Part shown: in pieces, positions 1 through 4,936 of the stretch
Layout: every line of letters starts with the position of its first letter
Numbering within the stretch: the stretch's first letter is position 1
Virus record (IMG/VR): IMGVR_UViG_2657245521_000011
Location: 1-4,936 of that record
Length of the DNA: 4,936 nucleotides
Reading direction: 5' to 3' (one strand)
From: a virus
Lineage: Duplodnaviria > Heunggongvirae > Uroviricota > Caudoviricetes
Position numbers and translations under genes: made by a program
Notes under the pieces: model-generated
Told to the model about the DNA's origin: nothing
Databases searched by the model: none
Seen by the model: only the letters and a program-made list of their open reading frames with translations

Positions 1-43
1 AGCGCGGGACCATTCACAACACCAGAAGGACTCACTTTCAGGT

Positions 44-118
44 ATGGATCGTAGACGATTTATTAAAGGTTCAATGGCTATGGCCGCCGTGTGCATTACC
101 ACTGACTTGTATTCCTGA
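44..118 (+). pseudogene. opgD: 5' fragment of host opgD/mdoD (glucans biosynthesis protein D): Tat signal-peptide N-terminus only, reading frame broken after codon 17
   Basis: ATG at 44-46 translates to [17 protein letters not shown], a twin-arginine (RRxFIK) signal-peptide start that matches my recollection of E. coli OpgD/MdoD ([21 protein letters not shown]...). From nt 95 the translation becomes ITTDLYS then stop (TGA 116-118) instead of the expected continuation. Identification rests on recalled sequence, not on a search. Confidence 0.5.
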
Positions 119-310
119 AGAGTTATTACCAATCACTTGGCTTATAGAGGATGACTTCTTCTTGTCACTTATTAAGTTGGCTACAGCAGTTAGAAAAGCC
201 CCTAAGCTGACTAAGAAAGCCAGTAGAGAAGCCAGTCCATGATGCTGGTATGCCTGATACCCGAATCCGCATGTTGCAACGAACGAAATTAGACAGATTA
301 ACTTTCTCAC
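71..310 (-). CDS. doubtful hypothetical small protein (79 aa, two hydrophobic stretches); possibly spurious or a truncated remnant
   Basis: ORF from the six-frame track. The start is GTG at 308-310 directly after an in-frame stop, with no convincing Shine-Dalgarno and no internal ATG. The coding strand is T-rich, which can give hydrophobic-looking peptides by chance. The last 8 codons are antisense to the opgD fragment, so the ORF crosses the apparent junction at about nt 95. Confidence 0.2.
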   Translation of the reverse strand: MRKLICLISFVATCGFGYQAYQHHGLASLLAFLVSLGAFLTAVANLISDKKKSSSISQVIGNNSSGIQVSGNAHGGHSH

Positions 311-866
311 GCGTCATATCTCTCTATAGGTTAAATGGCACTAAAAGCAACGCAGGATGTGCTTTGCTCTGAGCACATCATTGATTCATCTTACTAATAT
401 CTATTAATTAAAAGATAAAACTAGGGGGTTTATGGTAAAACAGGACTGGACAGTGCTGCAACACCAGTCTCTCGCCGACTATGCCAAAACGGGTATATCA
501 CCAAAAGAGTGGTGCTAAGCAGGGAGACGGATTAACACATCTGCACGTTTAGGTGAAGAGTGGACTGACCTGATACAGGTATATGATCCTGTTCTAAGCA
601 TTAATTAGTATAATCGATATTCATTCTCATTTGATGGGGCCTGTTATGCGATCCAACCTGTTACGGGGCGGCGACCGTGTGGATTCTCTCTATTTATGAA
701 TATTGTCCACTATTTGCCATTTCCGTTTTTCTCTCCGAGTACAACATGATTTCTATCCAACAAACAGGGCAACGCCGATGCCAGCACGTGCTAAACGTCC
801 ATGCCGACAAGGGACGTGCGGCAATCATAGTCGCATTGCACGCGTATAAATAACAAGGAGGGGGGA

Positions 867-1100
867 ATGCGCCTCACTGTATTAGATGATGATCCCGGCA
901 GGAAGATTGATATCAGAGTAGAGCGGTACACTGTCTATCTTGATGGTGTTGATGTTAAGCGCGCGCTCACTGCTGATGATGAGAAAGGTGAAGTAATCGC
1001 TGTTGCATGTGATGAATATGGCCACGCGACCATAGAGAACGGCGAAGTGAAGAGGCAGATGCTTTACGGCTTAGTGAGGATTGAACGGTGTCCGCACTGA
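867..1100 (+). CDS. hypothetical protein (77 aa), first gene of the HNH/terminase gene string
   Basis: ATG at 867 is preceded by a strong Shine-Dalgarno AAGGAGG (855-861, 5-nt spacer). The stop TGA at 1098-1100 lies 18 nt before the HNH start on the same strand, an operon-like arrangement. The protein is mildly acidic and has no motif I can recognise. Confidence 0.6.
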   Translation: MRLTVLDDDPGRKIDIRVERYTVYLDGVDVKRALTADDEKGEVIAVACDEYGHATIENGEVKRQMLYGLVRIERCPH

Positions 1101-1118
1101 TTTACAGGTAATGGTGGT

Positions 1119-1472
1119 ATGAACAAAGAACCGCGCATCTATGACAGCAGATGGGGTAAAGCCCGCCAGGCATTCCTGCGCGAACATCCTTTATGCATTA
1201 TGTGTCAGGCACTGGGAAGGATTGAGCTGGCGACTGTGGTCGATCATATCACGCCACACAGGTTGAAAGATGCTCTCATAACAGGAAATCCCGCAGATAT
1301 CTCCCGGGCGCAAAAGCTGTTCTGGGACAGAGGAAACTGGCAAGGGTTATGTAAACCCCATCACGACTCAACCAAACAGCGTATGGAAAAGAGCGGGAGA
1401 ATGACTGGCTGTGATGCTGATGGGATCCCGCTTGACCCCGATTCACACTGGAACAGGGGGAGGGGCGGGTAA
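1119..1472 (+). CDS. phage-associated HNH endonuclease
   Basis: 117 aa with CxxC (CIMC), then DHITPH, then N in GNWQGLC, then CKPHH: the Cys/His/Asn arrangement of HNH zinc-finger nucleases. ATG at 1119 with AGGT about 9 nt upstream. It sits immediately upstream of terS, the position where HK97-like phages carry an HNH gene involved in cos cleavage/packaging. Confidence 0.85.
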   Translation: MNKEPRIYDSRWGKARQAFLREHPLCIMCQALGRIELATVVDHITPHRLKDALITGNPADISRAQKLFWDRGNWQGLCKPHHDSTKQRMEKSGRMTGCDADGIPLDPDSHWNRGRGG

Positions 1473-1686
1473 AAACTTAAATACCTTTGCAGTAAATGAC
1501 CCCCGCTTCTCCTTTCTGTGTACAACCGCGAAATGAAAAGTTTTTTTTTGGCTTGTTTTTTGGTTAAAAAACAACCTCGAATTACTTCAGTGTATTGATA
1601 TATAAGAAAATGATGAAAACAGCAAAGCTACTGTATTAAAATACATATGTGATTTAATGCAGTAGTTTTATTGGGAGGTGCCCGGC
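1473..1686. other. AT-rich intergenic region between HNH and terS; candidate cos / packaging-initiation region
   Basis: About 214 bp of non-coding, AT-rich DNA with long T/A runs (T9 at 1541-1549) and an A/T-rich inverted repeat TTGTTTTTT-ggtt-AAAAAACAA (1553-1574). In HK97-like genomes cos lies between the HNH gene and terS. The call is by synteny; the cleavage site itself cannot be identified from sequence. Confidence 0.35.
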
Positions 1687-2151
1687 ATGGCAGGGAGACG
1701 TCCGAAACCGTCCCATCTGAAAGCGGTAACCGGCAACCCAAGCAAGCGAAAACTCAATGACAAAGAGCCGTTGCCCTCACGCGAAATACCGTCGCCGCCC
1801 CCGCACCTGACCGACTGGGGAAAGGTTGCCTGGGGAAAACTGACCGTACTGCTGGATGGGATGGGAGTGATGACGGTAGCTGACGGACTGGCACTGGAGC
1901 GCCTCTGTGATATCTACGCCGATATCCTTCAGTTACGTGACACTGTCGCAGTGGAAGGCAGAACCTATACGGTACAGACAGATGGTGGATTTCTGATAAA
2001 ACCGCATCCTGCTGTCGCCATGCTGGCAGACGCTGACCGCCGTTTTAAAAGTTATCTGGTTGAATTCGGTCTGACCCCGGCCGCCAGAACGAAGGTAAAA
2101 GTTGATGGTGGAGAAAAAGACGAAGATCCGTTCAACCAGTTCTTCGGTTGA
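1687..2151 (+). CDS. phage terminase small subunit, P27 family
   Basis: N-terminus MAGRRPKPSHLKAVTGNPSKR is the characteristic start of P27-family TerS proteins. ATG at 1687 with GGAGG at 1674-1678 (8-nt spacer). The ORF-track start at 1678 is a GTG three codons upstream and is less likely. Stop TGA at 2149-2151. Confidence 0.85.
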   Translation: MAGRRPKPSHLKAVTGNPSKRKLNDKEPLPSREIPSPPPHLTDWGKVAWGKLTVLLDGMGVMTVADGLALERLCDIYADILQLRDTVAVEGRTYTVQTDGGFLIKPHPAVAMLADADRRFKSYLVEFGLTPAARTKVKVDGGEKDEDPFNQFFG

Positions 2152-3840
2152 TCCAGCCACGCAGTATGCAATGGATGTGGGTACCGGTAAGAAAATTGCC
2201 GGACCAGATATTCGTAATGCCTGTAAACGTCATTTGCGCGATCTTGAATTTGGGCATAAGCGCGGCTTGTCATGGGATACAGAAGCAGCACTACGCGCGA
2301 TTGATTTTTTTGCGAAGGTACTGAAGCTTAACGGTGGGGAGTTTGAAGGAGAACCCTTCATTCTGTTGCCCTGGCAGTGCTTTATTGTGGGATCCATTTT
2401 TGGATGGAAACGGCGGAACGGGGCGCGCCGCTTTCGTACCGCTTATGTGGAATCAGGCAAGGGATCAGGTAAATCCCCTCTGGCGGCAGGGGTTGGCCTG
2501 TACTGCATGACTGCGGATAAGGAGCCCAGGGCCGAGGTGTATGCTGCGGCGACGAAAAAAGACCAGGCTATGGTGTTGTTTCGTGATGCGGTGGCGATGG
2601 TGGATCAATCACCGGCGCTGGCACAACGTATCAGCAAATCAGGAGGGGCGGGCAAAGAGTGGAATCTGGCATTTTTGCAGACGGGATCATTTTTCCGCCC
2701 GATTAGTTCTGATGACGGGCAGTCAGGCCCACGACCACATTGTGCCTTGATTGATGAAATCCATGAGCACAAAAGCAACATTGTGGTTGAAATGATGCGG
2801 GCTGGTACAAAAGGCAGGCGTCAGGCGCTGATTTTCATGATAACTAACAGTGGTCATGACAAAACCAGCGTCTGCTATGACTATCACCGGTACGGACAAA
2901 AAGTCGCAGCCGGACAACTGGATAATGATGCATTTTTCTCTTTCATTTGTTCCCTTGATGAAAGAGATGATCCCTTCCAGGATGAATCCTGCTGGCCAAA
3001 AGCGAACCCTTCCATGGGGCATACATTTGAGGACAGTTATTTACGGGAACAGGTTGATGATGCCCGCGGTATTCCGTCCAAAGAGAGCATTGTACGACGC
3101 CTTAATTTCTGTCAGTGGGTTGATGCTGAAAATCCATGGATTAGCAGTGATGCCTGGATGGCATGCGAAAAAAAATTCGATCCTGAAGAGTTCCGGGGGC
3201 AGATTTGTTACGGAGGACTGGATCTTTCCGGCAAAAGAGATCTCACTTCTCTTTCTCTGTATTTCCCTGGAAGCAATGCGTTGCTTACTGAGTTCTGGAC
3301 GCCGCGCGATACACTTTTCGATCGCGCAAGGGTGGATCGTGTTCCTTATGACGTCTGGCTGAAGAAGGGGTATGTACACGCGCCGCCAGGTGCTGCAATT
3401 GATTATGGCTTTGTGGCAAAACGTCTGGCAACACTTGCTGCAATGTTCGACATCCGTAAGGTGGCGTTCGACAGTTACCACATTGATTACCTTTTGCCGG
3501 AACTGGATGATGAAGGTGTAAACATCCCACTGATTCCGCACGGCCAGGGATTCGGCAAGTCCGCCAAATCCGGACTGTGGATGCCGCATTCCATTGAGTT
3601 GTTTGAACAACTCATCATGGATAAAAAAATAAACATCGTACTCAACCCCTGCCTTCGCTGGTGTGCGGCCAATGCCGTTATAGAGGAGGACAAAAGCGGA
3701 AACCGTGTATTCAGCAAGCGTCGCAGCAATGGGCGTATTGATGGCGTGGTGTCCGGTGCCATGGCAATTGGTGTTGCAGGATCCTGTGAAGATGACGGCG
3801 ACGGCGATATCAGTGATTTCTTTAATGACCCCATATTTAT

Positions 3841-3844
<4 letters not shown>
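2105..3844 (+). CDS. phage terminase large subunit (ATPase plus nuclease)
   Basis: 579 aa. Walker A GKGSGKS (nt 2456-2476) and Walker B-like hhhhDE (CALIDEIHE, nt about 2741-2767), followed by a C-terminal region with conserved acidic residues (GGLDLSGKRD) as in terminase nuclease domains. N-terminal YAMDVG...CKRHLRDLE is typical of this family. Preferred start is ATG 2105 (AAGGT at 2092-2096), overlapping terS by 47 nt; alternatives are TTG 2102, GTG 2108 and ATG 2171. Stop TGA at 3842-3844. Confidence 0.9.

Positions 3845-4936
<1,092 letters not shown>

Follow-up and report, generated by a model that had tools for sequence, protein, structure and literature searches.

The join points of RecA-independent tandem duplications in enterobacteria connect, tail to head, two loci of one strand that are separated by tens of kb. 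At the join a gene is left as a truncated fragment while an intact copy of it persists, such that the parental sequences are expected to be found beside the new one. When spontaneous rearrangements were surveyed across the Salmonella genome, every verified duplication had 11 bp or more of junction microhomology, ligation chimeras were typically blunt, and random chimeras joined loci irrespective of their genomic distance (PMC3411829). The aberrant excision that gives rise to lambda dgal and lambda bio has the same geometry, in that an illegitimate joint links an internal point of the prophage to host DNA flanking it on one side. Host reading frames can also be broken by mobile elements, as by the prophages in wrbA or yehV or in genes interrupted by insertion sequences (IS), and mobile-element DNA then follows the break. 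In short-read draft assemblies, chimeras and misjoins at contig ends take the form of a short terminal tail attached by a blunt joint in a fragmented assembly.

The DNA described here, referred to as the window, is a stretch of 4,936 bp that makes up the entire contig CCBR01000312.1 (locus L010) of GCA_000940555.1, a fragmented draft assembly of Escherichia coli with more than 300 contigs. It joins the 5' end of opgD to prophage DNA. OpgD, formerly MdoD, is described as a periplasmic beta-1,2-glucanase that depends on the twin-arginine pathway and sets glucan chain length (PMC10514313, citing Lequette et al. 2004).

The joint in the window resembles both tandem-duplication joins, minus the microhomology, and contig-end chimeras, except that it recurs. 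It shares with the former the tail-to-head order of two loci tens of kb apart on one strand, and the truncated gene fragment at the join; both parental sequences would be expected to remain, and native opgD is found in a sister assembly (L008). It differs from the Salmonella duplications in its lack of microhomology. It shares with contig-end chimeras the short terminal tail, the blunt joint and the fragmented assembly, to which an overlay of ambiguous bases in L008 and a tail in a further contig (L005) can be added; it differs in that two assemblies connect the same two loci, which are neighbours in cis and in direct order. The geometry of lambda dgal and lambda bio is matched, but an excised interval would be devoid of the early region and replication genes of the phage, the portal gene of the prophage is broken, and the product could not propagate as a phage; excision of that type is therefore relevant only as a possible route to a duplication. 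As in genes disrupted by prophages or IS elements, a host reading frame is broken and mobile-element DNA follows, but the break has no att core, integrase or terminal inverted repeat, and the only IS lies 4.6 kb away, at the other end of the window.

The opgD end of the window

The breakpoint between host and phage DNA falls exactly at 94/95, as seen directly in alignments of the window with native opgD and with the native phage (Table 1). The first 94 nt have a match in 5,418 of the 5,426 complete E. coli genomes searched, without a single mismatch to the O157 strain PV15-279, to strain 99-3165 or to the closest complete relative, 2021CK-01784 (94/94), and a match extending beyond nt 104 was found in none of the 5,426. 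A preliminary description, made from the sequence alone, had recognised nt 44-94 as the start of the Tat signal peptide of OpgD/MdoD and had noted that the sequence departs from opgD at nt 95 and reaches a stop 7 codons later. Both statements are borne out. Nucleotide 44 is the start codon of annotated opgD, and the reading frame of nt 44-118 begins with ATG, carries RRRF as its residues 3-6, such that a twin-arginine motif and identity to the 5' end of opgD are found together, and ends in ITTDLYS and a stop.

Across the breakpoint, native opgD reads GTGTGC followed by GGTACCAGCGGC, the native phage reads GGTTAA followed by ATTACCACTGAC, and the window reads GTGTGC followed by ATTACCACTGAC. 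Native opgD therefore continues differently from the ITTDLYS-stop frame of the window. The crossover has 0 bp of microhomology, with no base common to both parents. Both opgD and the phage have a TACCA pentamer, offset from the crossover by 2 nt to the right, and the two sequences match at 14 of 23 bases over nt 95-117. The preliminary description had also proposed to look for an abutting IS end or att core; neither was found by alignment, given that the DNA from nt 95 onward is phage DNA and that the sole IS end in the window is at nt 4694. The 24-codon reading frame that begins with opgD is a by-product of the joint.

Table 1. Features of the window (positions 1 to 4,936; strand relative to the window as given)
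Feature	Position	Strand	Evidence or remark
hglS(ydcJ)-opgD intergenic DNA, native E. coli	1..43	+	left contig end; 100% identity to E. coli
opgD codons 1-17, N-terminal part of twin-arginine signal peptide	44..94	+	
Chimeric 24-codon ORF: 17 opgD codons, 7 phage-derived codons and stop	44..118	+	
Blunt novel joint, opgD codon 17 to phage position p8977	94..95	.	three-way alignments
81-codon phage gene, small membrane protein (phrog_27656), minus last 9 codons	95..310	-	PHROG E=3.8e-7
77-aa phage ORF of unknown function	867..1100	+	phrog_24619, E=1.4e-7; called in all related contigs
HNH endonuclease, packaging module	1119..1472	+	phrog_2323, E=2.7e-48
AT- and T-rich spacer, HNH to terS	1473..1686	.	
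Terminase small subunit	1687..2151	+	PF05119 E=6.5e-23; phrog_83 E=4.9e-47
Terminase large subunit, 579 aa	2105..3844	+	PF03354, PF20441; phrog_9 E=1.2e-156
Portal gene, cut by IS after codon 281 of 441	3850..4693	+	PF04860 profile positions 1-224 of 321
ISEc31 (IS3-family), terminal 243 nt, end sequence TGTAGTGG...	4694..4936	-	rve_3 and rve_2 domains

Phage genes and the ISEc31 end

From nt 95 to nt 4693 the window is 99.4-100% identical to the interiors of prophages in other assemblies, in agreement with the earlier view that the DNA to the right of the junction is prophage-derived. This DNA comes from a defective lambdoid prophage of the IntR/Rac type, of which it is the late region, with an HK97-style HNH-TerS-TerL-portal module; the HK97-like order of these four genes follows from their Pfam and PHROG assignments. 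The spacer between the HNH gene and terS has long T runs, such as TTTTTTTTTGGCTTGTTTTTTGG, and occupies the site at which HK97-type phages have cos; it is presumed to be the cos region. Scans with Rfam and for tRNA genes returned no Rfam family and no tRNA in the window.

The phage gene that is truncated at the joint reads through it as a 79-codon reading frame (nt 71-310). Its native counterpart of 81 codons corresponds to L004 8947-9192 on the minus strand and overlaps by 4 nt the start of a downstream gene for a 302-aa protein. The junction-spanning 79-aa frame was not found when it was searched for as a called gene. Assignment of this minus-strand frame as the remnant of an AT3 acyltransferase was rejected, given a Pfam E-value of 0.0018, below the cut-off, and the 81-aa family phrog_27656 was preferred. 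The two genes form a minus-strand cassette (L004:8042-9192, of which the window holds the part at nt 95-310) that encodes the 81-aa phrog_27656 protein and the 302-aa protein (Pfam Vpar_1526, phrog_19542). A PADLOC scan of the cassette gave no match; its role may be that of a moron or of an exclusion system.

At the other end of the window, the portal reading frame continues past the IS boundary to a stop at nt 4698. An intact portal gene for 441 aa is present in L003, and divergence begins after nt 4693 of the window. The ISEc31 stretch is identical to E. coli copies of ISEc31 at 243 of 243 nt; it encodes the C-terminus of the transposase (nt 4702-4935, minus strand), and the contig ends within the IS. 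The same junction between the portal gene and ISEc31 (4693/4694) is present, without a difference, in at least 17 NCBI assemblies, in two Logan runs and in one ENA metagenome contig, and so marks a lineage with this defective prophage. A search for other contigs of the window's own assembly by way of the partial IS product returned only the window contig.

The prophage and its relatives

The closest well-known prophage is Rac of E. coli K-12, which has an IntR-family integrase beside ttcA-dbpA and early genes for RecE, RecT, YdaE, YdaT and a DnaC-like protein. The same arrangement is found in relatives of the window's phage: in L049, L051 and L052 a tyrosine integrase adjoins ttcA and a RecE/RecT early region is present, and one related Salmonella integrase is named IntR in its source record. 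The prophage lies in the orientation that Rac has on the K-12 map. It differs from Rac in its very low nucleotide similarity to the prophages of the 5,426 complete E. coli genomes, from which it is essentially absent, with none holding more than a few hundred bases of it. It also differs in its late region, given that the HK97-like module of HNH, terminase and portal genes has its best match in a phage collection at 76% identity, to Klebsiella phages, though the host is E. coli. The best match to its large terminase subunit among GTDB species representatives has 75% protein identity. Shigella or another species was considered as the host, as the phage is missing from complete E. coli genomes, and was rejected, because the 6.2 kb of flanking chromosome in L008 match three complete E. 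coli genomes at 100.0% identity and the source records attribute the phage proteins to E. coli.

In at least 15 other contigs the phage DNA runs on leftwards past the point that corresponds to nt 95 of the window. With phage positions numbered as in loci L003 and L004, contiguity across p8976/p8977 is seen in L003-L006, L009, L043-L047 and L056; one IMG/VR contig has the native phage sequence uninterrupted at the breakpoint, and the phage is continuous through it in 14 of 17 sibling contigs. Leftwards from the breakpoint come the 302-aa gene, on the opposite strand, then lysis genes, a DoxX gene, a Q-like antiterminator and genes of the nin region. Two homology searches extended the series further left, to YdaT, YdaE, the DnaC-like gene and then the 1,038-aa RecE and RecT, beyond which lie the IntR-family integrase, two cargo genes, ttcA, dbpA, ynaL and zntB. 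The breakpoint has the lysis module on one side and the packaging module on the other, and is 27 bp away from where the 302-aa gene starts. Because it falls inside the 81-codon gene of a continuous phage, nt 95 is an internal point of the phage, and not an att site, an IS end or the left limit of the prophage. The preliminary description had taken the junction as the left limit of the foreign DNA, a view that the continuation of the phage as far as its integrase contradicts.

The lysis cassettes differ between L004:5913-7633 and L043:15591-17735, the backbones of which are otherwise 99% identical; one cassette is a holin_3-type set, and the other consists of holin_2, lysozyme and DUF2514. Between the integrase and ttcA, two cargo genes are found on the opposite strand (L049:17710-19949), one for a protein of 402 aa with no Pfam match and one for a homologue of NA37, a YejK-like nucleoid-associated protein.

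Integration site and order of the pieces

The integrase adjoins NA37-ttcA-dbpA at every place where it was recovered (L049, L051, L052, L054), about 20 kb from the breakpoint. The late-region contig L043 overlaps the contig L049, which carries the integrase and ttcA, at 99.95% identity, and the window-type phages L004, L005 and L009 are 98.7-99.6% identical to the backbone of L043 and L049, save for the swapped lysis cassette. Both the integrase-ttcA locus (L054) and the identical portal-ISEc31 junction (L011) are found in one Logan run, ERR13951490, which has many contigs and may be an impure isolate.

In the complete relative, opgD is intact at 693,748-695,403 on the minus strand, and an empty attachment site lies between uspF (730,964) and ttcA (731,574, plus strand). 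Therefore ttcA and opgD are about 36 kb apart, and the stretch from attR to opgD would hold about 36 kb of chromosome, to which the right arm of the phage is added. No prophage is present within 18 kb downstream of opgD in this genome. In the closest complete genomes opgD is intact and synteny is normal. Since the integrase is on the strand of ttcA and the late genes are on the opposite one, the late genes lie upstream of opgD and on the same strand as opgD. The order in which nt 94 of opgD is followed by p8977 of the phage is thus a tail-to-head joint, a topology established in sibling genomes and the complete relative rather than in the window's own genome.

Given that the prophage at ttcA is upstream of opgD and on the same strand, neither insertion into opgD nor a simple deletion can yield the observed order; a simple deletion would join the phage up to p8976 to opgD from nt 95 onward. 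A simple deletion between opgD and a prophage downstream of it was likewise rejected, in view of the 18 kb free of prophage in the relative and of the upstream position of the phage at ttcA. The observed order is that of a tandem-duplication join, or of a circle excised from that interval; a chimera also fits it. The interval from the phage late region to codon 17 of opgD would measure about 41 kb with the IS as the end of the phage, or as much as about 65 kb with the remaining late region present.

The two loci in a sister assembly

A sister assembly, GCA_000937355.1 (L008), departs from the window sequence only in the vicinity of the joint. Left of the junction it has 6.2 kb of chromosome, in the order gap-cybB-ydcA-trg-ydcI-hglS, and it is this stretch that is 100.0% identical to three complete E. 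coli genomes. After the position equivalent to nt 94, L008 continues in native opgD for 23 nt (95-117), followed by NNNNNNTNANNNNCANTCN and then by phage DNA that is shifted by +1 nt. Within L008:6245-6290 (equivalent to nt 95-140 of the window), the native opgD bases are followed by a 19-nt stretch marked with N. In the first 13 positions of this stretch, N stands at exactly the 11 positions at which opgD and the phage differ, and bases are called at the 2 at which they agree. This pattern shows that L008 consists of two contigs laid over one another, one ending in native opgD and the other starting in phage DNA, rather than of a sequenced joint; the overlay was presumably made by paired-read scaffolding. 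The isolate behind L008 has native opgD beyond nt 94 and no read-supported sequence of the joint. Because native opgD continues beyond nt 94 and the overlay is filled with N, opgD is probably intact in this isolate. L008 nevertheless connects the same loci as the window, with their orientation unchanged and a register that agrees to within 1 nt.

A different tail is seen in L005, a 115-kb prophage contig of GCA_000936455.1. At L005:13317-13460 the portal gene is left bluntly, at the equivalent of nt 4434 of the window, for a tail of 144 nt that is 100% identical to E. coli kdpA and inverted with respect to the chromosome map, after which the contig ends. Such a tail reflects either another rearrangement or a contig end that is chimeric. 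An attempt to derive the k-mer size of the assembler from the overhangs (94 nt at the left end of the window, 243 nt into the IS at its right end and 144 nt in L005) led to no conclusion, as the overhangs are inconsistent.

Explanations for the joint

The leading explanation, which is tentative and is given a probability of about 0.45, is that the joint is of the duplication type and that an intact opgD is retained. The joint would then be part of the isolate's DNA, created by illegitimate, homology-free recombination in a tandem duplication that covers about 41-65 kb and extends from the phage late region to codon 17 of opgD. By an alternative route to the same structure, an aberrantly excised circle of the interval might have recombined back into the chromosome. 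The second copy would still have a complete opgD at its far end, so no change in periplasmic glucan synthesis would be expected. The linkage in L008 alongside native opgD is as a duplication predicts, with the parental junction and the new joint coexisting. The stop of the contig only 94 nt beyond the joint fits a fork in the assembly graph between native opgD and the joint, and the closeness of the partners (about 1% of the genome or less) and their direct order favour a real joint over a random chimera. Several observations count against a duplication. There is 0 bp of microhomology at the joint, as against the 11 bp or more of the Salmonella duplications, and the opgD part is only a 94-nt tail at a contig end in an assembly of more than 300 contigs. 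L008 has an N-filled overlay in place of a read-supported joint, and L005, which comes from the same ENA batch, has a similar blunt 144-nt tail from portal to kdpA. The window contig shows no fork on its phage side, though the native phage junction should persist there. Large tandem duplications are unstable, yet the joint would be common to two isolates. The joint sequence was not found in GTDB species representatives or in JGI metagenomes.

Rather than a joint in the genome, the window may hold an artefact of assembly or library preparation, in which 94 nt of opgD were attached to a prophage contig by a chimeric fragment or by the misjoin of a dead-end tip, while opgD and the prophage are both intact and unlinked. 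This has a substantial chance of being correct, if a smaller one than the duplication. The opgD part is a terminal tail on a contig that is only 4.9 kb long, the joint is blunt, as in ligation chimeras (PMC3411829), and the phage is continuous at this point in 14 of the 17 sibling contigs. L008, with native opgD to nt 117 and then N at exactly those 11 of the next 13 positions at which opgD and the phage differ, offers an overlay rather than a sequenced joint, and the tail of L005 would require a 700-kb inversion if it were real. What an artefact explains poorly is recurrence, in that these loci are linked in two assemblies with separate accessions, with orientation and register alike in both, an outcome that independent random chimeras would not repeat. 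The loci are also close in cis and in direct order, for which the prior is only about 1% with a random chimera, and the joint in the window is clean and free of N, such that it had enough k-mer coverage to survive assembly. A true disruption of opgD, in which a deletion or translocation on a backbone already rearranged, for example by IS-mediated transposition or inversion of the prophage region, fused codon 17 to the phage, is unlikely; a broken opgD had been the main reading of the preliminary description. The reading frame in the contig does stop after 24 codons, the portal gene has already been hit by ISEc31, which makes more IS-driven rearrangement plausible, and the window contig has no competing native phage predecessor at nt 95. 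However, the prophage lies upstream, at ttcA and on the same strand, such that a simple deletion gives phage followed by the 3' part of opgD; the sister assembly L008 has native opgD past nt 94; and opgD is intact, with normal synteny, in the closest complete genomes. Were opgD truly disrupted, no intact copy would be left, OpgD would be lost and the chain length of periplasmic glucans would be altered. Least credible by far is site-specific integration of the phage into opgD, with the junction as attL and nt 95 as the left end of the prophage. The TACCA pentamer common to both parents, 2 nt rightwards of the joint, together with the match at 14 of 23 bases over nt 95-117, could be taken for a trace of a common core, but there is no identity at the crossover itself and no core common to attB and attP. 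An att site is refuted by the loci listed above, in which the phage runs unbroken across p8976/p8977 and the breakpoint is internal to the 81-codon gene and 27 bp from the 302-aa gene, and by the integrase, which is about 20 kb away beside ttcA.

Significance

The preliminary description had offered two possibilities, that opgD is inactivated or that the window crosses a rearrangement boundary, and had added that loss of OpgD would alter periplasmic glucan synthesis. The alignments support the boundary. They do not support the loss, given that native opgD extends at least 23 nt past the breakpoint in L008 and is intact in the closest complete genomes; opgD is not inactivated if the joint is a duplication or a chimera, the two leading explanations, and the predicted effect on glucans falls away with it. 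The warning of a possible misassembly in the preliminary description is apt. An apparent broken gene at the end of a short-read contig should not be scored as a pseudogene or a prophage boundary unchecked. Before such scoring, the place of the foreign DNA in related genomes has to be established, and the order of the pieces has to be compared with what insertion or deletion would produce. For opgD in this assembly, neither a pseudogene nor a prophage boundary should be called without a check of the reads. A search for literature on the assembly accessions found none.

The prophage is uncommon yet of a familiar type, and nothing mechanistically new is seen here. It is improbable that the joint is both real and inherited, such that a defective prophage at the Rac site seeded a stable tandem duplication of about 41-65 kb in a sub-clade of an E. 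coli lineage. The seeding might have occurred, for example, by aberrant excision, or by replication in situ, and subsequent recombination into the chromosome. In that event about 36 kb of adjacent host genes, from uspF to hglS, would be doubled, and the locus would be a case of prophage-driven amplification of the flanking chromosome by a homology-free join. In short, the biological weight of the joint is small: it adds at most a further structural variant to a prophage region in decay, and opgD has probably been retained.
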